Shown here in pieces: positions 14,132-30,386 of a stretch of 64,000 bases of DNA. The translations under genes were made by a program, and so were the position numbers. The notes under the pieces are model-generated. The model was not told the DNA's origin, searched no databases, and saw nothing but the letters and a program-made list of their open reading frames with translations. This DNA comes from a virus: IMG/VR virus record IMGVR_UViG_3300031087_000014; one strand, written 5' to 3'. How positions within the stretch are numbered: position 1 is the stretch's first letter; every line of letters starts with the position of its first letter.

Positions 14132-14160
14132 AAAAAACCCCTACCCAAAAGGGCAGGGGC
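14132..14160 (-). terminator. terminator closing the tRNA cluster transcript
   Basis: GCCCCTGCCC/GGGTAGGGGT stem plus T run. Confidence 0.75.
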
Positions 14161-14309
14161 TTAAACTTTGCCTGCGTTGAAGAGTCGCAGCCCTCTAGCT
14201 TGCCTTTCGGCTACTCTTTGAAGGAACTAGGCATTAGTCTTCGAAGATGGACACATAAAGTGTCCGTAGAAATCATACTAGGTATGTCTCTACACCGCTG
14301 GCGCGGATA

Positions 14310-14384
14310 TGGTTGCTCCAGCAGGTAACGATCCTGCTTCTGTCGCTTATCAGGCGACTGTAATACCTTTATACTATAGAGCAA
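14310..14384 (-). tRNA. tRNA-Ile(GAT)
   Basis: Cloverleaf; gtcgc-CTGATAA-gcgac; CCA end; T-loop variant ATCGTTA. Confidence 0.85.
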
Positions 14385-14389
14385 TTGAT

Positions 14390-14470
14390 TGGCACGTAGG
14401 TGATGATTCGAACACCTAAACTAACGGGTTTGGAAGCCGTCTCCTGACCACCAGGATTAGTGACCCACGT
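14390..14470 (-). tRNA. atypical tRNA-Trp(CCA)
   Basis: Acceptor acgtggg/cctacgt plus GCCA; TTCGAAT T-loop; loop TTCCAAA; irregular D arm. Confidence 0.6.
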
Positions 14471-14477
14471 ATTTATT

Positions 14478-14556
14478 TGGTGGAGAATAAGAGACTTGAA
14501 CTCTTCTGGTATCCTCGGTGCAAGCGAGGTGTCCACTCCTGGCAGACCCATTCCCC
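14478..14556 (-). tRNA. tRNA-Ala(TGC)
   Basis: cctcg-CTTGCAC-cgagg; G3:U70; ACCA end. Confidence 0.9.
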
Positions 14557-14561
14557 TAATT

Positions 14562-14706
14562 TGGCATCGTAGAAAGGAATCGAACCCCTCAGAGTAGGCG
14601 ATCAACTCTACCTGTGACCCTCATCACTTGGGAGATTAGCTACATCACCACCTCCGTCGAGGAAGTATCTCGTAACCATCTTTCCTTTGCTTTGTATCAC
14701 TACGAC
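14562..14706 (-). ncRNA. 145-nt tRNA-scaffold ncRNA
   Basis: Acceptor gtcgtag/ctacgat plus GCCA and TTCGATT T-arm; ~110-nt non-tRNA body. Confidence 0.65.
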
Positions 14707-14730
14707 ATTTTATTTGGTGATCATTTCATT

Positions 14731-14816
14731 TGGTACATCAGGTGAGACTCGAACTCACACGTCACAAGGACACTGGAACCTAAATCCAGGGCGTCTACCA
14801 ATTTCGCCACTGATGC
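14731..14816 (-). tRNA. tRNA-Leu(TAG)
   Basis: ctgga-TTTAGGT-tccag; long variable arm; ACCA end. Confidence 0.9.
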
Positions 14817-14823
14817 ATTTGTT

Positions 14824-14890
14824 TAGTGGAATCGTGCAGATTCGAACTGCATCCGGCTCCCTACGGGAACCAGTCACCCAAATCAATTCC
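14824..14890 (-). ncRNA. 67-nt mini tRNA-like RNA lacking a D stem
   Basis: Acceptor ggaattg/cgattcc; T-arm tgcag-TTCGAAT-ctgca; one 9-bp hairpin; ends ACTA. Confidence 0.6.
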
Positions 14891-14897
14891 GAGTGTT

Positions 14898-14979
14898 TGG
14901 AAGCGAGAGCGGAAGTCGAATCCGCAATTTTCAGGGTATGAGCCTAACGTGATCTATATATCCGTTTCACTATCTCGCT
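14898..14979 (-). tRNA. tRNA-Met(CAT)
   Basis: ttagg-CTCATAC-cctga; enlarged D loop; CCA end. Confidence 0.8.
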
Positions 14980-15063
14980 ATTGTTAAATCAGCTTTAAAC
15001 TAAAAGCATTATCCACGGCCCTATCAGACTCCTATCTTCAATTAGGGAATCGTAGCCTTGATA

Positions 15064-15136
15064 TGGTGCAGATGCAAGGATTCGAACCTCGAACAAACAC
15101 CTTCGTAGAGTGTTGCCTGTCCATCAGGACACCTGC
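15064..15136 (-). tRNA. tRNA-Arg(ACG)
   Basis: acact-CTACGAA-ggtgt; short D arm; CCA end. Confidence 0.8.
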
Positions 15137-15141
15137 AAAAA

Positions 15142-15216
15142 TGGTGCGACCTGCTGGTAACGATCCAGCCTTTCTGCCTTTTCAGGGCAGCACACATCCG
15201 TCTATGTCAAAGTCGC
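15142..15216 (-). tRNA. tRNA-Phe(GAA)
   Basis: ctgcc-CTGAAAA-ggcag; T-loop variant ATCGTTA; CCA end. Confidence 0.85.
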
Positions 15217-15250
15217 TTTGAAACCGATATCATCTTCGATTTCTATTGTT

Positions 15251-15328
15251 TGGTCAGTGCAGGGTGAATCGAACACCCGACCTCCTGCTCCCAAAGCAGG
15301 CGCTGCTACCAGGCTGAGCTATGCACTG
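15251..15328 (-). tRNA. tRNA-Pro(TGG)
   Basis: cctgc-TTTGGGA-gcagg; CCA end. Confidence 0.92.
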
Positions 15329-15334
15329 AATATT

Positions 15335-15411
15335 TGGGGTGGCTAATGGGACTCGAACCCACATAGAACTGCATCACAGGCAGCGTCATTAAGCCATTAT
15401 GATATAGCCAC
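15335..15411 (-). tRNA. tRNA-His(GTG)
   Basis: gctgc-CTGTGAT-gcagt; C73 plus CCA. Confidence 0.88.
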
Positions 15412-15443
15412 ATCTTAGTGCTCTCATTGAAAACACTAAAATT

Positions 15444-15518
15444 TGGCAGAGGTGAGAGGAGTTGAACCTGCTGCTACGGGAGTCAAAGGCCCGTGTGCTA
15501 CCATTACACCACACCCCT
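15444..15518 (-). tRNA. tRNA-Gln(TTG)
   Basis: Loop CTTTGAC; GCCA end. Confidence 0.88.
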
Positions 15519-15524
15519 AGTATT

Positions 15525-15669
15525 TGGCGAACAGGAAGGAGTCGAACCTTCGTACACATCCTTTGGCGAGGCTATGTATTCTTGAATGCCCATACTAATT
15601 ATGTTTTGTTAGTCAAACAAGCGCCAACTTGCGAACCCTAACGCTACACTTTCATATTGCATCTATCCG
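15525..15669 (-). ncRNA. second 145-nt tRNA-scaffold ncRNA
   Basis: cggatag/ctgttcg end pairing plus CCA; T-arm gaagg-TTCGACT-ccttc; no canonical anticodon arm. Confidence 0.6.
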
Positions 15670-15675
15670 ATAATT

Positions 15676-15747
15676 TGTTGAAGCTAGAAGATAAATCTTC
15701 ATTTGTCAATCTCGGAAGTGACAAGTTTTGCATTAAACTATAGCTTC
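15676..15747 (-). ncRNA. remodelled or degenerate tRNA-like element
   Basis: gaagcta/tagcttc acceptor; D stem; ttgtca/tgacaa stem with 10-nt loop; T stem with 4-nt loop; ends AACA. Confidence 0.55.
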
Positions 15748-15753
15748 TTTTTT

Positions 15754-15841
15754 TGGTATCGTGGACGGGATTCGAACCCGTAAGCAGAAAACTGCGCCAG
15801 ATTGAAAGTCTGGTTACTTAGGCCAATTTGTATACCACGAT
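15754..15841 (-). tRNA. tRNA with TTC (Glu) anticodon and long variable arm
   Basis: ccaga-CTTTCAA-tctgg; gcag-tttt-ctgc variable hairpin; A73 plus CCA. Confidence 0.85.
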
Positions 15842-15847
15842 ATAATT

Positions 15848-15924
15848 TGGAGCGAGATATCGGATTCGAACCGATGACGAACTGCTTGGAAGGCAGACAC
15901 TCTACCAGACTGAGTTAAACTCGC
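15848..15924 (-). tRNA. tRNA-Gly(TCC)
   Basis: Loop CTTCCAA; U73 plus CCA. Confidence 0.92.
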
Positions 15925-16050
15925 AATGTTGAAGGGCTAGCTGTGTGCTGCATATAGAGACATTGCACACCCACGCTGTAAATATTCTCGTTGGAAAACA
16001 CTTACAGAGATCTCTACTGGTATCCAGTTATTCCCCTTCTTGGGATACTC

Positions 16051-16101
16051 CGCGCTACGCTTCACAGCGTTTCGTCTTATTTCAAAGACTCATCAGGCGC
16101 G
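16051..16101 (-). ncRNA. type I hammerhead ribozyme core
   Basis: cgcgc-CTGATGA-gtctt(tgaaat)aagac-GAAA-cgct(gtga)agcg-TA-gcgcg; all core nucleotides and three stems present. Confidence 0.9.
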
Positions 16102-16434
16102 TTTGCTTGATAATATACGATCACGTAGACCTTTTATGTGCCGTCGCGGTCACAACCTGTTATGATAAATCACAGTGCAGGTAGGGGAGAGGGTATAACA
16201 TTTCTGCTATCTCGTGTCGCCCTCTCTAAACAACCTCCATCACTAAAGACTGGACGCTATTGTTATTTGTGGGACAGTGACGGATATCCCTTTGCTGACT
16301 AGGCTACGTTCGGGACTGCTACCTTACAATGTTACAAGCTGTTGCGAATAACTCTGCTCGGTGCTCTCGACAAGAAGTACCCGCTGATACTATGCTCTTG
16401 TCATCCATACTCGCGGTCAAGCTTTCTGGTCATC

Positions 16435-16510
16435 TGGTGCTTGCAGCAGGACTTGAACCCGCGACCCACTGATTACAAAACAGTAGCTCTACCAACTGAG
16501 CTATACAAGC
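16435..16510 (-). tRNA. tRNA-Thr(TGT)
   Basis: Loop TTTGTAA; ACCA end. Confidence 0.92.
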
Positions 16511-16511
16511 T

Positions 16512-16685
16512 TTATCTTAATGGAATACCTTTGTATTCTCTTGAACGTATCAGTGCTTCTCTTCGTTTACGAGCTTCACGTTTTACGTTGTTTGGTGAAC
16601 GAGGATATTCACTGTAGACTTGAAAAGTTCTATTAACTTCTCTTGGTTCATCAAAGGAACCTATGGTCTGCTTCTGGAATGTCAT
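16512..16685 (-). CDS. small basic hypothetical protein (57 aa)
   Basis: AGGAG RBS, ATG at 16685; lies between tRNA-Asn and tRNA-Thr. Confidence 0.6.
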   Translation of the reverse strand: MTFQKQTIGSFDEPREVNRTFQVYSEYPRSPNNVKREARKRREALIRSREYKGIPLR

Positions 16686-16700
16686 ATCATTCTCCTGTAT

Positions 16701-16778
16701 TGGCGATCCTAGCAGGACTCGAACCTGCAACCGGTGGATTAACAGTCCACTGCTCTAACCAATTATAGCTATAGAATC
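16701..16778 (-). tRNA. tRNA-Asn(GTT)
   Basis: gtgga-CTGTTAA-tccac; GCCA end. Confidence 0.92.
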
Positions 16779-16784
16779 ATTGTT

Positions 16785-16869
16785 TGGTGAAATCTACTTT
16801 TCGAGCTTGTATCCCCGAAGGACTGAGTGATATAGATCACGCCATCTCGTCTTCCCTTATTTCGATTTC
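16785..16869 (-). ncRNA. 85-nt CCA-ended non-tRNA RNA
   Basis: gaaatc/gatttc plus ACCA; inner cgag/ctcg stem closing gtgat-ctat-atcac and a cTTCGg hairpin; no T-loop. Confidence 0.45.
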
Positions 16870-16875
16870 ATTATT

Positions 16876-16957
16876 TGGTGGGGCTGCCTGGATTCGAACC
16901 AGGGCGTGGTATGCCTGATTTACAGTCAGGTGCGTTCGGCCTCTCCGCCACATCCCC
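16876..16957 (-). tRNA. tRNA-Tyr(GTA)
   Basis: cctga-CTGTAAA-tcagg; ACCA end. Confidence 0.92.
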
Positions 16958-17025
16958 TTAAACTTTATTTATCAATACTATATCATAAAAGTATTCAGAA
17001 GTAAAGATTTATTTTACTTTTTGTT

Positions 17026-17102
17026 TGGTGCATCGCGGAGGATTCGAACCTCCAGTATTCTGATTAAAAGTCAGATGCCTTATCCAGTTTAGCTAGCGAT
17101 GC
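17026..17102 (-). tRNA. tRNA-Lys(TTT)
   Basis: tctga-CTTTTAA-tcaga; ACCA end. Confidence 0.92.
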
Positions 17103-17103
17103 G

Positions 17104-17197
17104 TGGAGGAGAATATCAGACTTGAACTGATACGCCGCGTTTCCGCGACTACTGAGTGTTTAGCAAACACTTCCCTTACCGTTAGGGTTAATTCTCC
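17104..17197 (-). tRNA. tRNA-Ser(GCT)
   Basis: agtgt-TTGCTAA-acact; long variable arm. Confidence 0.9.
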
Positions 17198-17238
17198 GTT
17201 ACTTCTTATCGGTGTGATTTCTCACTCAATATCTTAGT

Positions 17239-17314
17239 TGGCGGGGATAGAGGAAATCGAATCCTCGGCTCCGCAGTGACAGTGCGGTATTTTTACCAAC
17301 TAAACTATATCCCC
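17239..17314 (-). tRNA. tRNA-Asp(GTC)
   Basis: ccgca-CTGTCAC-tgcgg; GCCA end. Confidence 0.92.
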
Positions 17315-17320
17315 TTAATT

Positions 17321-17411
17321 TGGAGGAAGGTAATGGAGTCGAACCATCATCGGCTATTAACCGATGGGCTGGTTTTCAAGACCAGTTACTCACCGCTGAG
17401 TCCTACCTTCC
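17321..17411 (-). tRNA. tRNA-Ser(TGA)
   Basis: ctggt-CTTGAAA-accag; long variable arm. Confidence 0.9.
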
Positions 17412-17452
17412 TTTAAGTAGTTGTTAACTAACAATCTTCTCTACTTAATACC

Positions 17453-17481
17453 AATGTACCACGTATTTGATTGTCTGTCAA
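17453..17481 (-). promoter_or_regulatory. sigma70-like promoter for the tRNA array
   Basis: TTGACA-17-TACATT. Confidence 0.65.
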
Positions 17482-17498
17482 CAACTATTTTAAACTAT

Positions 17499-17678
17499 TT
17501 ACTGCTTGGTAGAACGAGCGCGTTCACGCTTAGTTTTACCAGTACGGATGCGGTGAGACACTTTCTTCACTTCGCCGTTGATGGTAATTTCAACTGGCTT
17601 ACTTTCAGTCTGAGTAGACTTGCTCTCAAACTGGAAAGGCTGAATGATTTTGTCTACTGCGCTTACTTTCTTACCCAT
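17499..17678 (-). CDS. small basic hypothetical protein (59 aa)
   Basis: AAGGAG RBS, ATG at 17678 (MGKKVSAV...). Confidence 0.6.
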   Translation of the reverse strand: MGKKVSAVDKIIQPFQFESKSTQTESKPVEITINGEVKKVSHRIRTGKTKRERARSTKQ

Positions 17679-17877
17679 TATGTCTCTCCTTATATGATTT
17701 ATTTTTAAATTGTGCCTCTCTGTCGCCATAAGCGAGGCTACTTACTATGATCGGAAAACAAAAAGTTACAATAACTTTTAAAAACGATGGCTTGTATATT
17801 TCATTAAGTTGTGCTCGACAAGAAGGCTAGTCTACAAACGCTACAACTTTAAATCAACGCATATACCAGACGCAAAC

Positions 17878-17954
17878 TGGCACTCCGTGAGGGATTCGAA
17901 CCCCCAACCTAGAGAGTAGAAATCTCTTGCGCTATCCAATTGCGCTAACGGAGC
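17878..17954 (-). tRNA. tRNA-Arg(TCT)
   Basis: agaga-TTTCTAC-tctct; GCCA end. Confidence 0.92.
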
Positions 17955-17990
17955 AAATATTCTCTTTAACCTTGTTGGTCAGTGAGGTAA

Positions 17991-18224
17991 CTATACTACA
18001 GTTTCAGTAATAAAGTCAACATCTTTTTTAAACTTTCTTTTCTTGTTCCCAAAAATAACTCCACATACAGAGCACTTCTGACCTGGAGCTACTAAATCTC
18101 TATCGCAGCCACACCATACTCGCACTTTCTTTGGTGACTTGGCCTTTACTCTATTCGAATGTCTTTTGTAAGTCAATCTCTTTTCTCCCTTCACGACGAG
18201 CTTTCTTTCTTTTTGCTCGGTCAA
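17991..18224 (-). CDS. small Cys-rich (CxC...CxxC) basic protein
   Basis: ORF track; true start may be the TTG at 18176. Confidence 0.5.
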   Translation of the reverse strand: MTEQKERKLVVKGEKRLTYKRHSNRVKAKSPKKVRVWCGCDRDLVAPGQKCSVCGVIFGNKKRKFKKDVDFITETVV

Positions 18225-18327
18225 TTACTTTTCTGACAGTCCAGTGTCGCTGAGTTCGATCAGGATGGAAGCAGCAACCCCAACCACAGATAGAGTTATC
18301 TTTTTCTGTGTGTCCATATGGTTTCAT
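18151..18327 (-). CDS. small basic hypothetical protein (58 aa, MKPYGHTEK...)
   Basis: GGAGG RBS plus ATG; below the ORF-track cutoff. Confidence 0.55.
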   Translation of the reverse strand: MKPYGHTEKDNSICGWGCCFHPDRTQRHWTVRKVIDRAKRKKARREGRKEIDLQKTFE

Positions 18328-18408
18328 TATTACCTCCGATAAAAATAATAAGAAAGAGTGTTTCTTTATTATTACTTCTAAAGAAAGCCCCCGAAGGGGC
18401 TTATAAAA

Positions 18409-19017
18409 TTACTTGCCGTTGTTAACGGTAACACCCTGGCGCTGAGCATCAGCACGAGCGATTTCCAGACGAGTTTCACGTTCTGCGGTAATCTGACCTT
18501 TCAGATCTTTGTTCTGCTCTTCGAGGAAGGCAATACGCTGTTCAAAAGATTTCTCGTTAGCTTCGAACTGAGCGATGGCTACGCGATGGTTTGATTCGAT
18601 TGCAGACTTCTGAGCGTTAAACGCGATTGCTGCTGAACGTTCACCTGCTGCTTTGGCTTCTGCCAGAGCGTCTTCGTTAGAATCCTGAGCCACAGCCAGA
18701 TCTGAACGGAGGGTAGCCAGTTCTTTAGGATCGATAGTTACCAGAGTACGAGATTTCAGAAGAGTACCAAGTACTTTATCTTCGTCTTCAATTACTTTCA
18801 GTTTCAGTTCAGCAGAAGCTTCACGGAATTTAGTATCGAACTGCTGATTCAGGTTATCCAGATCATTCTGCTTGTATTCGATATCAGTCGCCAGAGAAAC
18901 AGCTTGGTCAGCGATTGCTGCCAGATCCTGGGTGATTTTAACCAGGCCAGTTGCTGCGGTGTTCAGTGCTTTAGTAGAACGATCTGCTACGGTGATTACT
19001 TTTTTAACTTCTGACAT
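18409..19017 (-). CDS. coiled-coil hypothetical protein, probably highly expressed
   Basis: 202 aa; GAGGAG RBS; strongly biased codons; followed by a terminator. Confidence 0.8.
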   Translation of the reverse strand: MSEVKKVITVADRSTKALNTAATGLVKITQDLAAIADQAVSLATDIEYKQNDLDNLNQQFDTKFREASAELKLKVIEDEDKVLGTLLKSRTLVTIDPKELATLRSDLAVAQDSNEDALAEAKAAGERSAAIAFNAQKSAIESNHRVAIAQFEANEKSFEQRIAFLEEQNKDLKGQITAERETRLEIARADAQRQGVTVNNGK

Positions 19018-19098
19018 ATCTATATTCTCCTCTAAGAATTATTTATTTTTGATTAGTAATCTGTCCACTATATTAGTGAACAGAGCATTAAACAAAGT

Positions 19099-19205
19099 TG
19101 GAGCCGGATGGTGGAGTCGAACCACCTATGTATTCACATCACCCTAAAAGTGAATGCTGTTTTCGGGCTTTGATGGCCCCGCCCTTACCCAAGGGCTTAT
19201 CCGGC
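19099..19205 (-). ncRNA. 107-nt atypical tRNA with CA-TCA-AA loop and oversized variable arm
   Basis: gccggat/atccggc plus TCCA; D arm gccctt-gggt-aagggc; gggc-CATCAAA-gccc; T-arm ggtgg-TTCGACT-ccacc. Confidence 0.7.
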
Positions 19206-19207
19206 GT

Positions 19208-19333
19208 TGGTTGATGCGTAACAGGACTCGAACCTGCAATGTGTGAGTCATCGGCGGCTTCCGGTAAGCTACGGCGCTCAACCGTAGTAGATTCCCTATT
19301 CCCCCGCGTCTACCTATTTCGCCAGACGCATCA
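19208..19333 (-). ncRNA. 126-nt Leu-like tRNA-scaffold RNA
   Basis: 8-bp acceptor tgatgcgt/acgcatca plus ACCA; Leu-type D arm GCGAAATAGGTAGACGC; TTCGAGT T-arm; expanded central region. Confidence 0.65.
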
Positions 19334-19350: not shown

Positions 19351-19380
19351 ATATTAACACGGTTTTTGATACCGTGTCAA
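19351..19380 (-). promoter_or_regulatory. sigma70-like promoter
   Basis: TTGACA-18-TAATAT just upstream of the first tRNA-like RNA. Confidence 0.6.
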
Positions 19381-26529: not shown

Positions 26530-26886
26530 ATGAAACCAGACACTATCCTGTGGTTGGATGATGTACGTGACCCTAAAAACTTTGGTATGGAAGGTGCTGT
26601 CTGGATCAAGACATTCTCAGACTTCGAAAATACTCTTCATACCTTGATCGAAGCGATGCAGGATGATAATATCGTTCACATCAGTTTTGATAATGACCTG
26701 GGCACTGAGGAAGAAGGGTATGATGGATTCTGTATCTTGGAGGAGTATCTTCATATGGGATACTTCGAAGGGCTGAAAAAGATCACAGTACATTCATCAA
26801 ACCCTAGCGCAGTTCATAAGTTTATGTTAGTATCTCGGGCAATGAAGGCTCACTTTGATATTGACCTTTTACGTACACCACTTTGA
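26530..26886 (+). CDS. cyclic-phosphate-processing receiver-like domain protein
   Basis: LWLDDVRDP, ISFDNDLG and VHSSNP motifs. Confidence 0.7.
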   Translation: MKPDTILWLDDVRDPKNFGMEGAVWIKTFSDFENTLHTLIEAMQDDNIVHISFDNDLGTEEEGYDGFCILEEYLHMGYFEGLKKITVHSSNPSAVHKFMLVSRAMKAHFDIDLLRTPL

Positions 26887-26895
26887 GGAGTAATT

Positions 26896-27810
26896 ATGAT
26901 TGACGTTAGCGTAGTTCTGGAATACCTTAAGGATTACCGCGAAGAACTGAAACAACCTATGGATCGTGTGCTGGCAAGAAAGGCATTGTTCACCAACGGT
27001 GTTCCAGTAATGAGCTTCGAGGAGATGGTTTCCTTTGATAGTGATGTTTTCGACGAAATGTTTGAATACTACATCACAACAGGACGTAAGCCAAGTCGCC
27101 GCCCTATATTGGAGCGTATTTACCCTTGGTTTGGATATGTAAAAGGTAATGTGTATTGGGGCAAAGCTGTAGATGTTGAGCGGCGTGCTCTGAGAAAAAT
27201 GCAGATGAAAGACTTGCATTACTCGGAGGATAATGTACACTTCGTATCGGATGTTCATTTCTTGCATAAGAATATCATCCATCACAACCGAAACAACATC
27301 TCAAACATTGATGAAATGCATCATCTGCTGATTGAAGCGTGGAACAAACAAGTGGGGCCAAACGATTTGGTGTTTGACTTGGGGGATCTCACCTTGGGTA
27401 GTATGACTAAGGGATTGGAATTACTTAAGCAGTTGAATGGCTTTATTATTCATCTGAAAGGAAACCACGTTAGTGAAAAGGAATGGGAGTATTACGATAT
27501 GAATCTCCCTAAACAAAAGTTTGTTGACAGTAGCTACTTATGCAGTACAATCAACGGGCAGAAGATTGCAATGTGTCACTTCCCGATTCTGAGTTGGGAC
27601 GATATGCACCGCGATAGCTGGCACCTGTTTGGTCACTGTCACGGAAGTAATGCAATGGAGCAGCATATGGGCAAGGCGATGGATGTTGGAGTAGATGCAA
27701 CTGTAGGCATTACTGAATCACTCCGTCCTGTCTCTATGGCAGAAGTAAGAACAGTTATGGCTGGCAAAAGAATTGTTAGCTGGGATCATCACGAAGTAGG
27801 AGGAAACTAA
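26896..27810 (+). CDS. calcineurin-like metallophosphoesterase
   Basis: SDVHF, LGD, GNH and GHCHG motifs. Confidence 0.85.
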   Translation: MIDVSVVLEYLKDYREELKQPMDRVLARKALFTNGVPVMSFEEMVSFDSDVFDEMFEYYITTGRKPSRRPILERIYPWFGYVKGNVYWGKAVDVERRALRKMQMKDLHYSEDNVHFVSDVHFLHKNIIHHNRNNISNIDEMHHLLIEAWNKQVGPNDLVFDLGDLTLGSMTKGLELLKQLNGFIIHLKGNHVSEKEWEYYDMNLPKQKFVDSSYLCSTINGQKIAMCHFPILSWDDMHRDSWHLFGHCHGSNAMEQHMGKAMDVGVDATVGITESLRPVSMAEVRTVMAGKRIVSWDHHEVGGN

Positions 27811-27811
27811 T

Positions 27812-28834
27812 ATGAGCAATATCAAATACCCGAGCACAAACCAGTTCCGTCAGGTAGTTAAGACAATGAAAACTCAACTGGAGTATGATCATTATAATCC
27901 AGAGACGCAGGAACACGTCACAAAGATTCCAGAAACGTATGTGATCCCTTACATCGGTACTGTGAAGATTCACGGCACCAACGGTAGCGTACTTTTCCGC
28001 TCAGAAACTGATTTCATCTTCCAATCAAAAGCCCAGCAGGTAGACATTGGGAAAGATAATGCCGGATTTGCAGCGTTTATGCATCGCAAAGATATGGATC
28101 TTCTGCTGGCGCGAGTACGTAAAGTATGTGAGGATCATAACGTAACATTTGAGTTCCCTGTCGAGATTGCTGGAGAGTGGGCAGGTCGTGGTATTCAGAA
28201 AGGCGTTGCTGTTACTGAGGTTGAACCATTCTTCGCTGTATTCCGTGTTGCAGTAGGTGAGCGTCCTAATGGCGGTCTGAAATGGCTTCCGACAGATATC
28301 ATCGGGCCAGTGTCTGATAATGAAAACCGGATCTTCAACATTCTACAGTTTGGCTTTGTTCCACTGGAGATTGACTTTGAAAATCCTCAGAATGTACAGA
28401 ACACCCTCGTATCTCTGACAGAAGAAGCAGAGAAAGAATGTCCGGCAGGTAAGTTCTTTGGTGTGTCTGGTATCGGTGAAGGTTATGTTTGGACTCCTGC
28501 TGATCCATCTCTGGCTATTGACTCTGGCTTGTGGTTTAAAGTGAAAGGCGATAAGCACTCTGTTTCTAAGGTTAAGACCTTGGCGGCAGTAGACCCTGAA
28601 CGTATGGCAAACATCGCTGAGTTTGTGGAATATGCCGTAACTGAAAATCGTCTGGAGCAGGCTCTGGGTGAAGTAGGCTTGGATAAGACCAAGATCGGAG
28701 AGTTTGTTAAGTGGATGTCTACAGACATTCTTAAAGAGGAAGGCGATGTTATGGAAGCCTCCGCTCTAACAATGAAAGATGTTGGTAAGAACATCTCTGA
28801 TAAATCCCGTAAATGGTATATGGCTAAACTGTAA
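27812..28834 (+). CDS. RNA ligase 2-like protein
   Basis: KIHGTN motif I; GEWAG; GEGYV; FKVK. Confidence 0.8.
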   Translation: MSNIKYPSTNQFRQVVKTMKTQLEYDHYNPETQEHVTKIPETYVIPYIGTVKIHGTNGSVLFRSETDFIFQSKAQQVDIGKDNAGFAAFMHRKDMDLLLARVRKVCEDHNVTFEFPVEIAGEWAGRGIQKGVAVTEVEPFFAVFRVAVGERPNGGLKWLPTDIIGPVSDNENRIFNILQFGFVPLEIDFENPQNVQNTLVSLTEEAEKECPAGKFFGVSGIGEGYVWTPADPSLAIDSGLWFKVKGDKHSVSKVKTLAAVDPERMANIAEFVEYAVTENRLEQALGEVGLDKTKIGEFVKWMSTDILKEEGDVMEASALTMKDVGKNISDKSRKWYMAKL

Positions 28835-28847
28835 GAGGAGAATTAAA

Positions 28848-29972
28848 ATGCAAGTAACTGACTTCCTGAAAACACCTGGTAACTCTCTGACCCTGTTAAC
28901 TCTGTCTACAGGCATAAAAGTGAAAGAATATCCAGAAGAGGGCTTATACGTCCTAAACTATGACCAGATAGATAGTCCAAAGACACATCCTCTGGTTATG
29001 GAGTGCCGAGCACTGATCCTTGACAGGGAGTTTAATGTGGTTGCTCGTTCATTTGACCGATTCTTCAACCTGAATGAAGCGCCGGATACACAGGCGCATT
29101 TAGATTGGGATATTGCTGAGATTGCTGATAAAGTAGATGGTAGTCTAATCAAACTGTACTACTGGAACGGTGCTTGGCGCTTCTCTACTCGTGGCACAGC
29201 ATTTGCTGAAAGCCAGTGTATGAATAGTGAATACACATTCCACGATCTTTGCGTCAAAGCTTCTAACGCTAGTTATATGGAAGAGGTAGAGGCGTCAGCA
29301 GAACTGGCTGATCTTGACCAGGGAGTTACATACCTACTGGAGCTTACTTGTCGTGAAAACCGAGTGGTAACAGTATATGAGGGCTATCATCTGCACTTCT
29401 TAGGTGCTCGTCGTAATGACACTGGTGAATATGTGACTGTCCCTAATAGTGCATTATGGGTGATGAACTGGAAAGCTGTTAATAAGTATAAGTTTAACAG
29501 TGCTCAAGCTTGTAAAGAGACAGCCGAAAAGCTTCCTAATCTGGCAGAAGGTTATGTTGTTTACCAGAATGGCATCCCTGTTTGTAAGGTGAAGTCTCCA
29601 GCATACGTTGCTGTCCACCATCTCCGAGGTAACGGTATCCCTTCTTTGAAGCGTATTGTTGATTTGGTTGCTGTGGGTGAAGAAGACGAGTATCTTACTT
29701 ACTTCCCAGAGGACAGAAAGTACTTTGATCCGGTGACTCAAGCTAAGGCTTGGATTATCAATCAGGCTGATGCTATGTGGCACGTAGCTAAAGATATTGA
29801 GGAACAGAAGAAGTTTGCCATTGTGGTGAAAGATCTGTCCTTTGCTTGGTTGCTGTTTCAAGCAAGAAAGGTAAACAAGGAGCCGTCTGAGGTGTTCAAC
29901 TCCGCTCCGCTGGAGAAGCGATCTAAGACAATCCTGAACTATGTCGAAAAAGCAGGGAATGCTTTGAAATAA
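28848..29972 (+). CDS. RNA ligase 1 (T4 RnlA-like)
   Basis: ECRALI, RFFN, KVDGSLI, EGYV and KVKS motifs; start MQVTD at 28848. Confidence 0.85.
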   Translation: MQVTDFLKTPGNSLTLLTLSTGIKVKEYPEEGLYVLNYDQIDSPKTHPLVMECRALILDREFNVVARSFDRFFNLNEAPDTQAHLDWDIAEIADKVDGSLIKLYYWNGAWRFSTRGTAFAESQCMNSEYTFHDLCVKASNASYMEEVEASAELADLDQGVTYLLELTCRENRVVTVYEGYHLHFLGARRNDTGEYVTVPNSALWVMNWKAVNKYKFNSAQACKETAEKLPNLAEGYVVYQNGIPVCKVKSPAYVAVHHLRGNGIPSLKRIVDLVAVGEEDEYLTYFPEDRKYFDPVTQAKAWIINQADAMWHVAKDIEEQKKFAIVVKDLSFAWLLFQARKVNKEPSEVFNSAPLEKRSKTILNYVEKAGNALK

Positions 29973-29981
29973 GGAGGAAAA

Positions 29982-30386
29982 TTGAAGAATTTCTATATCA
30001 TTCGTGGTGTATCTGGGAGTGGCAAGTCCACTCTCGCTAAAACAATGTCTGAGGCTCTTGGAGCTTCACATTTAGAAGCTGATATGCTGCTATACAATAA
30101 CCAAGGAGAATACGTCTGGACAAAAGAAGGCGTATCTGAGGCACATCGACAGACTGCGATTCATCTGTATCACTTAATGGAGTCAGGTGAGTCTAATATA
30201 ATTCTGTCCGATACCTCTGCAAAACAAAAAGATATGCAAAAATACCTTGATCTGGCTAAAGAGAAGGGTTACACTACGACAGTGATTGTAGTTGAGAACC
30301 GTCACGGCGGTAAGTCCATTCACGATGTAAGCGAGGAAACACTAGCTAAACAACGTGATCGTATCCGAAGCACTATTTCACTCTAA
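29982..30386 (+). CDS. P-loop kinase (polynucleotide kinase-like)
   Basis: RGVSGSGKST; directly after the RNA ligases. Confidence 0.7.
   Translation: MKNFYIIRGVSGSGKSTLAKTMSEALGASHLEADMLLYNNQGEYVWTKEGVSEAHRQTAIHLYHLMESGESNIILSDTSAKQKDMQKYLDLAKEKGYTTTVIVVENRHGGKSIHDVSEETLAKQRDRIRSTISL

Follow-up and report, generated by a model that had tools for sequence, protein, structure and literature searches.

Among the transfer RNA (tRNA) genes of the phage recorded in IMG/VR as IMGVR_UViG_3300031087_000014 we have found a set of small tRNA-like elements that do not decode. We consider it likely that they are tRNA-derived RNA genes of phage tRNA operons, that four of them are kept by selection and that they act as mimics of the tRNA “top half”. 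The stretch analyzed (hereafter the window) has 64,000 nucleotides and corresponds to the reverse strand of the source genome, a single contig of 141,261 bp. A first-pass annotation of the window had listed seven elements as one family of tRNA-scaffolded RNAs; the presence of such a non-decoding set within the array was supported, while their membership in one family was not. The seven coordinates that it gave are the 3′ ends (lowest coordinate) of minus-strand elements located in the gaps between tRNA genes. The four that appear to be kept by selection are E19333 (19208..19333), E19208 (19099..19205), E15525 (15525..15669) and E14562 (14562..14706). These preserve the coaxial helix of acceptor and T arm, the T loop and an encoded N73-CCA, together with, in two of them, the D arm that closes the elbow, while in place of the anticodon region they have either a long irregular arm or a short hairpin that is not of the anticodon type.

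Architecture and conservation of the elements

When the minus strand was read and folded, the paired acceptor stem noticed in the first pass was found in all seven elements. It has 8 bp in E19333 and 7 bp in E19208, E16785 (16785..16868) and E15676 (15676..15747); the 7 bp of E15525 include two G-U pairs, those of E14824 (14824..14890) one and those of E14562 the pair G1-U72. The T arm, expected in most of them, is canonical (5 bp and a UUCGANU loop) in E19333, E19208, E15525, E14824 and E14562; that of E15676 has a 5-bp stem with a 4-nt loop and E16785 has none. As for the 3′ ends, E19333 finishes in A-CCA, E19208 in U-CCA, E14562 in G-CCA and E16785 in CCA straight after the stem, E15525 has CCA without discriminator (C-CCA in the near-identical relative L001), E15676 has AACA (ACCA in L001) and E14824 ACUA. 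Both strands of the window were searched with a scanner that required a 7-nt loop of the type U[UA][CA][GA]A on a 5-bp stem and, after it, a 7-bp acceptor. On the tRNA strand it returned E19208, E15525, E14824, E14562 and the true tRNAs with no other match, and on the opposite strand two matches only, with non-canonical loops. This confinement of the T-arm and acceptor signature to the array is far beyond chance, and the signature is therefore real and array-specific. E19333 was missed because its acceptor helix sits one register off. A 7-bp acceptor on a 5-bp T stem with a UUCRANY loop is present in the four elements returned by the scanner, and in E19333 with 8 bp and a 1-nt bulge, and is absent from E15676 and E16785.

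The lower half of the elements is not that of a decoding tRNA. A tRNA-type anticodon arm (5-bp stem, 7-nt loop, U33 and a conserved anticodon) was found in none of them, and folding gave no anticodon arm at all in E19333, E15525, E14562 and E14824. ARAGORN called none of the seven and neither did Rfam with default filters (RF00005); folding recovered acceptor and canonical T arm in five. However, the first-pass view that the D/anticodon half had been replaced by unrelated structure was wrong for three of them, i.e., for E19333, which has a canonical Leu-type D arm, for E19208, with a selenocysteine (Sec)-type 6-bp D stem, a 4-nt loop and a short anticodon-like hairpin, and for E15676, a full although degenerate cloverleaf.

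E19208 is a conserved L-shaped tRNA-like RNA, supported by alignment, covariation and a covariance model. From the 5′ end, its 7-bp acceptor leads into a 6-bp D stem that closes a 4-nt loop; then come a 4-bp stem whose loop reads CAUCAAA, the linker GAAAA, a hairpin that varies, the AAUACAUA linker, the T arm and U73-CCA. A BLAST search returned full-length homologues from about 30 phages in GenBank. In the Erwinia phages pEp_SNUABM_01 and Hena1 they are annotated as “tRNA-TERM” or “tRNA-sup(tca)”, and in Salmonella phages PVP-SE1 and SSE-121 they are without annotation or lie under a “hypothetical protein” overlay. Others were found in Cronobacter GAP31, Escherichia 4MG, Raoultella Ro1 and Avunavirus 18-1-2, and one in a Schitoviridae phage, UTK0002. 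Together with rV5-like contigs, detected by a pattern scan of IMG/VR, the family ranges over Henunavirus, Seunavirus, Mydovirus, Avunavirus and this single Schitoviridae phage. A pattern scan of 185,579 bacterial and archaeal species genomes gave one match to the family signature.

The alignment of this family (A4, 15 sequences) defines four helices, in which 21 pairs were scored. All 21 were paired in every sequence (315/315 cells) and eight of them presented compensatory changes, while in slid controls, with the 3′ partners moved by 1–3 columns, only 34–52% of the cells pair. The GAAAA and AAUACAUA linkers are invariant and the stems vary. There is also a co-change between the D tetraloop and the T loop. 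Tetraloops UGGC or GGGU go with UUCGAYU and UGUC goes with UUAGAUU, the latter combination being present in GAP31, 4MG, Ro1, L042 and four IMG/VR contigs. Base 3 of the D tetraloop thus covaries with position 3 of the T loop, from G with C to U with A, which fits the G19:C56 elbow pair of tRNA. The change probably took place in a single evolutionary event, and it supports an L-shaped fold. That elbow, linkers and lower hairpins are all conserved in the family shows that selection acts on more than its processing. The “anticodon” loop, on the other hand, varies in length (5–7 nt) and sequence (CAUCAAA, AAUCAAG, CAUCCA, CAGCCA, CCUCCA, CUUCCA, UUUUA, UUAUA), and therefore does not decode; in E19208 itself it sits on a 4-bp stem and has A33. 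The covariance model built from the alignment (R1) separates the family from ordinary tRNAs, its members scoring 111–123 bits and the tRNAs at most 31 bits.

E19333 was recognized as a tRNA-Leu-type shell by alignment with the tRNA-Leu(UAA) of the relative L002 and by comparison with sibling contigs. Its 8-bp acceptor (UGAUGCGU/ACGCAUCA, then A-CCA with A73) encloses a Leu-type D arm with G18G19, a non-anticodon insert of ~70 nt, made of a long irregular arm and a 15-nt linker, and a canonical T arm. It has all the traits by which we recognize such shells (D arm GNGAAAUNGGUAGAC, T arm, paired acceptor and an insert of 55–85 nt for the anticodon and variable arms), and the Leu-type D arm is absent from the other six elements. 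In L002, a more distant relative, the slot is occupied by a normal tRNA-Leu(UAA), whose acceptor, D arm and T arm align with those of E19333, but whose anticodon and variable arms do not. In the siblings L035, L036 and L038, with flanks and E19208 96–98% identical to the window, the slot contains the same shell with a wholly different insert (family B). Between the two versions of the shell there are compensatory changes in the acceptor (C-G to U-A), the D stem (GCG/CGC to GUG/CAC) and the T stem (GCAGG/CCUGU to GUAGG/CCUAU).

Homologues of family B, which also has the Leu-type shell build, lie in tRNA clusters of T4-like phages that infect Erwinia, Serratia, Kosakonia, Escherichia and Enterobacter, and in the consensus fold of the family (8 sequences) 16 of the 30 predicted pairs carry compensatory changes. 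In the same way, an exact-pattern scan of IMG/VR (Leu-type D arm, 55–85-nt gap, T arm) gave 19 loci with a Leu-type shell, paired acceptors and unrelated inserts of 55–85 nt. We take these comparisons as direct evidence that a tRNA slot can hold interchangeable Leu-type shells, with inserts common to Vequintavirinae-like and T4-like phages. The E19333 insert itself has relatives only in 99%-identical copies, with matches to T-arm pieces in GenBank phages, and Rfam gave no match to E19333 at E≤10. Both the exchange of this slot with T4-like phages and the E19208 family, with its covariation and its misannotation as suppressor tRNA, appear to be undescribed, as we found neither of them in the searchable literature or in Rfam release 15. 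Some further observations concern these shells. The IMG/VR loci L070, L076 and L078 combine a Leu-type body and a very long extra arm with a GUU loop. In the T4-like Enterobacter phage ZX14 (L101 1-60) a family-B RNA immediately follows a stretch that looks like the 3′ end of T4 rnaC, and the motif YUGAGUAAGR is common to T4 rnaD and family B. These hints suggest that rnaD may be a distant relative of family B without T arm.

The two long-arm elements have a common layout of 7-bp acceptor, long arm, hairpin and T arm. E15525, a tRNA-like RNA of 142 nt plus CCA identified by the scanner, its conservation and a consensus fold, has a long arm of ~75 nt and a hairpin containing AAUACAUAG. Its identity with L002 (83%) falls within the range of the true tRNAs shared by both (60–94%), compared to about 50% for non-conserved spacers, and in the consensus of three sequences 43 pairs are kept, with two compensatory and several compatible changes. 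It is therefore conserved like true tRNAs, which supports that it is kept by selection. E14562 (141 nt plus G-CCA, from the scanner and comparison with L001) has a counterpart only in L001 (88% identity). Each of its 47 predicted pairs is kept there through one compensatory and five one-sided compatible changes, which lends weak support to selection. GenBank phages gave matches only to T-arm pieces of either element. In size and layout both resemble T4 rnaC (139 nt), T5 RNA1 (144 nt), a 146-nt element of Erwinia phage pEp_SNUABM_01 and a 149-nt element of many T5-like contigs, although homology with these could not be shown. The AAUACAUAG motif is also present in E19208, and the genome has three same-strand copies of it versus about 0.5 expected; common descent of E19208 and E15525 could not be shown from it.

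The remaining three elements are outside any conserved system and present no evidence of selection. E15676 is a degenerate cloverleaf, found by Rfam in sensitive mode and by folding, with a 10-nt “anticodon” loop besides its 4-nt T loop. It scores 36.1 bits on the Rfam tRNA model (gathering score 29), with sensitive filters only, and its folding energy has a z score of −2.7 versus shuffles. It was found only in the window and L001, a mini-ORF (open reading frame) being located at its place in L002, and is probably a decaying tRNA. E14824, a mini tRNA-like of 63 nt from the scanner and folding, has an acceptor, a single-stranded stretch containing GG, a 9-bp hairpin and a T arm, and lacks CCA. 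It is strongly structured (z = −3.3) and corresponds to a 73-nt indel missing from L001, where the flanks are near-identical; in the reading that we prefer it is a recent lineage-specific mini-element. Neither E15676 nor E14824 had matches in GenBank phages beyond T-arm pieces. E16785 is not credible as an RNA gene. It is a spacer with 7-bp terminal pairing only that folds no better than shuffles (z = +0.6), and its place differs among relatives: in L038 it is missing and tRNA-Tyr adjoins tRNA-Asn, in L039 an ORF stands there, and the L002 sequence cannot be aligned with it (50% identity). The ORF of L039 (L039:1970-2497, ~160 codons, between tRNA-Tyr and tRNA-Asn, where the window has a 97-nt spacer) has a translation that looks GIY-YIG/T5orf172-like by eye, and a homing endonuclease insertion is probable. 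The first-pass annotation had taken intact pairing as a sign of selection rather than decay in the whole set. This holds for E19208 by covariation, for the E19333 shell by the compensatory changes between alleles and for E15525 by its identity with L002, more weakly for E14562, in which every change at predicted pairs keeps the pairing, and not for E15676 and E14824, which are lineage-specific and resemble a decaying tRNA and a recent indel, respectively.

Comparison with known tRNA-like RNAs

Phage tRNA clusters have been known to encode small stable RNAs since the 1970s, in T4 (species 1 and 2) and in T5. The elements of the window belong with these RNAs, a class defined by position and behaviour, and are of a kind already known: they lie inside a phage tRNA cluster, on the tRNA strand, and are non-decoding. 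The precedent of T4 species 1 and 2 invoked in the first pass was thus apt, and T5 comes even closer. Its record (AY692264) has six misc_RNAs within the tRNA cluster (RNA1, rna2, RNAI, RNAIII, RNAIV and RNA2H), of 103–172 nt and, as in the window, on the tRNA strand. RNA1 (144 nt) is built like E19333, with a long insert between a Leu-type D arm and a T arm, and rna2 (125 nt) is closed by an acceptor-like stem and includes a canonical T arm. In contrast to five of our elements, RNAI, RNAIII, RNAIV and RNA2H have no T arm. To our knowledge none of the T5 stable RNAs has a known function.

In T4, rnaC and rnaD are annotated at the end of the tRNA cluster and encode RNAC (species 1, 139 nt) and RNAD (species 2, 119 nt). 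Similarly to E15525 and E14562, to which it is close in size, rnaC has a canonical T arm at its end and a partly paired terminal stem, but this acceptor-like stem is imperfect (5/7) and there is no CCA; rnaD has no T arm. No sequence homology between the elements of the window and the stable RNAs of T4 or T5 was detected by BLAST or with model R1, which found no member among them and whose matches in the T5 locus were true tRNAs only. RNAC and RNAD are expressed late, as discrete RNAs, and for about 50 years no role has been assigned to them (PMC9697503, PMC3014915).

Other tRNA-like molecules are less close. E19208 resembles tRNA-Sec in its 6-bp D stem with a 4-nt loop and its long extra arm, which covary across the family, and in the source phage also in its CA-UCA-AA loop. 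However, tRNA-Sec has an 8-bp acceptor, G73 and U33-UCA, while E19208 has 7 bp, U73, A33 and a 4-bp anticodon stem, its UCA is not conserved in the family, and its score on the Rfam model (RF01852) was 36.5 bits, under the gathering score of 47. The tRNA-like domain of transfer-messenger RNA (tmRNA) and the YrlA-type Y RNAs are likewise top-half mimics with a D-loop contact and no anticodon decoding, and E14824 resembles a bare tmRNA tRNA-like domain. Both candidates were discarded. ARAGORN found no tmRNA in the window or the genome, there is no tag frame and no G3:U70 (E14824 has A3:U70). As for Y RNAs, the elements gave no match to YrlA or Y_RNA of Rfam, the genome (96% complete) has no Ro60/TROVE gene, and Y RNAs end in a Ro-binding stem, unlike the elements, which end in a free acceptor with CCA. 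The 3′ tRNA-like structures of plant RNA viruses, which use the host CCA-adding enzyme, aminoacyl-tRNA synthetases and RNase P (PMC4810235), are another case of viral mimicry of the acceptor/T half. These are, however, cis elements of RNA genomes in eukaryotic hosts and are built with pseudoknots, whereas the window has free-standing genes of a DNA phage with ordinary helices.

The tRNA array and its genome

The gene content and DNA matches of the source phage (completeness 96% by CheckV) place it near the Vequintavirinae. Its genes include a nicotinamide phosphoribosyltransferase and a PRPP-synthetase-like gene. The closest DNA relatives are phages of Mydovirus, Seunavirus and Henunavirus, with matches confined to tRNA pieces. 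The tRNA complement of the whole genome forms one array, on the minus strand of the window from 19333 down to 14310, with 18 tRNAs called by ARAGORN and a tRNA-Met(CAU) contributed by Rfam (14901-14979). The tRNA-Leu(UAA), tRNA-Cys and tRNA-Val of relatives are absent. All elements and all tRNAs share one strand between two putative signals, both identified by consensus match only. Directly upstream of E19333 there is a sigma-70-like promoter (19351..19380, −; TTGACA, 18 nt, TG-n-TAATAT), which matches 10 of the 12 consensus positions with an extended −10, and after the last tRNA an intrinsic terminator-like hairpin (14135..14162, −), with a 12-bp stem and then a T run.

An eighth odd element (14388..14470, −), missed by ARAGORN and by Rfam, is most likely a non-canonical tRNA-Trp(CCA), judging from its UUCCAAA loop, 7-bp acceptor and G-CCA. 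Two of its oddities, a hairpin-like D arm and an A.A mismatch at the T-stem base, recur in the tRNA-Trp annotated in PVP-SE1. Several other tRNAs of the array are unusual. The tRNA-Ile(GAU) (14310-14383, −) and tRNA-Phe(GAA) (15142-15216, −) have the T loop AUCGUUA instead of UUCGAAU, as if positions 54 and 58 had been swapped. The tRNA-Ala(UGC) called by ARAGORN (14478-14556, −), with G3:U70, has no Rfam tRNA match even at E≤5 and is 87–94% identical to the annotated tRNA-Ala of many T5-like Salmonella phages. The tRNA-Glu(UUC) (15754-15841, −) has 88 nt and a class II body with a long variable arm, unusual for tRNA-Glu. In addition, there is a hammerhead-like motif (16051-16101, −; 30.9 bits, E about 1e-3, under the Rfam gathering score) that is conserved in L041 and L043, two T5-like contigs from metagenomes. 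Compensatory changes affect its stem II (GUCUU/AAGAC to GUCC/GGAC) and its stem III (CGC/GCG to CAC/GUG), the core is CUGAUGA or CUGACGA, and GUA or GUC serves as cleavage triplet. The motif is followed by a conserved RNA of ~130 nt (15925-16055, −) reaching tRNA-Gly. The first ~320 nt of the 510-nt gap that holds the motif are missing from L001.

Outside the array, an RNA-repair-type gene cluster (26530-30386, +) contains a cyclic-phosphate-processing receiver domain (26530-26886, +), an Rnl2-like RNA ligase (27812-28834, +), a T4 Rnl1-like RNA ligase (28779-29972, +) and a P-loop kinase (29982-30386, +). These genes are compatible with a phage in conflict over tRNA, and reveal nothing of the role of the elements. 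The window and the genome sequence differ at 10 bases, none of them inside the elements studied (3915, 3928, 5274, 13771, 13796, 13897, 13916, 24769, 30460 and 44963).

Possible roles of the elements

RNase P requires the acceptor/T-arm helix and is assisted by a 3′ CCA. The parts conserved in the selected elements are those for tRNA-type maturation and stability, from which we infer that the elements would be co-transcribed with the tRNAs from sigma-70-type promoters, cut by RNase P at their 5′ ends and trimmed on the 3′ side back to the CCA, and that they would accumulate as stable RNAs of 65–145 nt, like RNAC and RNAD of T4 or RNA1, rna2, RNAI and RNAIII of T5. Once released they could act as top-half mimics, the constant shell securing their processing and stability and bringing them to proteins that recognize the elbow or acceptor end of tRNA, and the variable lower part, with the invariant single-stranded linkers, carrying the specificity. 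The first-pass annotation had proposed that they could be decoys, aminoacylated mimics or carriers of aptamers. A host partner appears more likely than a phage one, because the same RNA families are common to unrelated phage families infecting Enterobacterales.

Some results weigh against this reading. E14562 and the insert of E19333 have near-identical relatives only, so that selection on their interior is barely probed. The 3′ ends of E15525 and E15676 are imperfect in the source genome relative to L001. The thermodynamic z scores are weak for E19333 (−0.9), E15525 (−0.5) and E14562 (−1.5), although a true tRNA-Leu used as control reached only −1.2. Finally, the step from conserved RNA to mimic with a partner is purely our inference, and the elements could be kept mainly as processing punctuation.

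This last explanation, which we hold unlikely, would make of the elements former tRNAs with their anticodon halves destroyed, relics whose RNAs have no function in trans and whose acceptor and T arms are kept only so that RNase P and 3′ trimming can free the tRNAs next to them and the mRNA that follows. The position of E19333 in a former tRNA-Leu(UAA) slot and that of E19333 and E19208 between the promoter and an ORF of 202 aa can be explained in this way, as can the missing Leu(UAA), Cys and Val tRNAs and the lineage-specific or decaying character of E15676, E14824 and E16785. However, punctuation would need the acceptor/T minihelix only. It leaves unexplained why, in the E19208 family, the D- and anticodon-type hairpins and the elbow covary and the linkers are invariant across genera, how the family was transferred into a Schitoviridae phage, and why the interior of family B is conserved between Vequintavirinae-like and T4-like phages.

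That the inserts are antisense or sponge RNAs on a tRNA chassis, with a shell that gives only processing and stability, is very unlikely in our opinion. Such inserts would pair with a host, plasmid or phage transcript or titrate CsrA, Hfq or ProQ, which agrees with their being swappable on a constant shell and with the conservation of single-stranded linkers. The hairpin loop CAAAGGAUGU of E15525 is also reminiscent of the CsrA GGA-loop consensus; this GGA motif is lost in L002, and a CsrA-like loop was rejected for that reason. There is no antisense match of at least 13 nt to the phage's own genome except for the shared T-arm sequence, and E14562, E15525 and E19333 with E19208 gave no matches in 5,426 E. 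coli genomes and plasmids, although E. coli may not be the host and short seeds fall below detection, making these negatives weak evidence. Least tenable of all is that E19208 works as a non-canonical tRNA reading UGA (opal suppressor or Sec-like), with the other long elements as aminoacylated adaptors: the Sec-type D arm, extra arm and sub-threshold score, the UCA-centred 7-nt loop, the suppressor annotation of the Henunavirus homologues and, as LeuRS does not read the anticodon, the A73 and Leu-type D arm of E19333 all favour it, but we rejected it given the A33, 4-bp anticodon stem, 7-bp acceptor and U73 of E19208, a family loop in which UCA changes to UCC, GCC or U-rich sequences with the remainder conserved, and the use of TGA as an ordinary stop, ending 33 of the 151 long ORFs of the source genome, an ordinary share, with no split genes seen.

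Within the top-half mimic reading, a bolder version, which we consider quite improbable, is that the E19208 family and the Leu-type shells are horizontally exchanged anti-defence RNAs. They would be L-shaped decoys made by the tRNA-processing enzymes of the host, which would titrate or misdirect factors that recognize the elbow or the acceptor, e.g., tRNA-targeting nucleases or nucleotidyltransferase toxins, and their inserts would diversify in an arms race.

We know of no small stable RNA from a phage tRNA cluster with a known function. What the window adds to this class is a family, that of E19208, with strong secondary and tertiary covariation, not present in Rfam and in GenBank called suppressor tRNA, overlaid with a hypothetical-protein coding sequence or left unannotated; a tRNA slot with interchangeable Leu-type shells; and an array in which selected and decaying elements are clearly separable. 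The phage also carries two RNA ligases and a kinase of the types seen in tRNA repair, and the elements therefore sit in a genome invested in a contest over tRNA, a context that makes them concrete candidates for functional study. If the anti-defence interpretation were true, it would at last provide a function for RNAC and RNAD of T4 and for the stable RNAs of T5.

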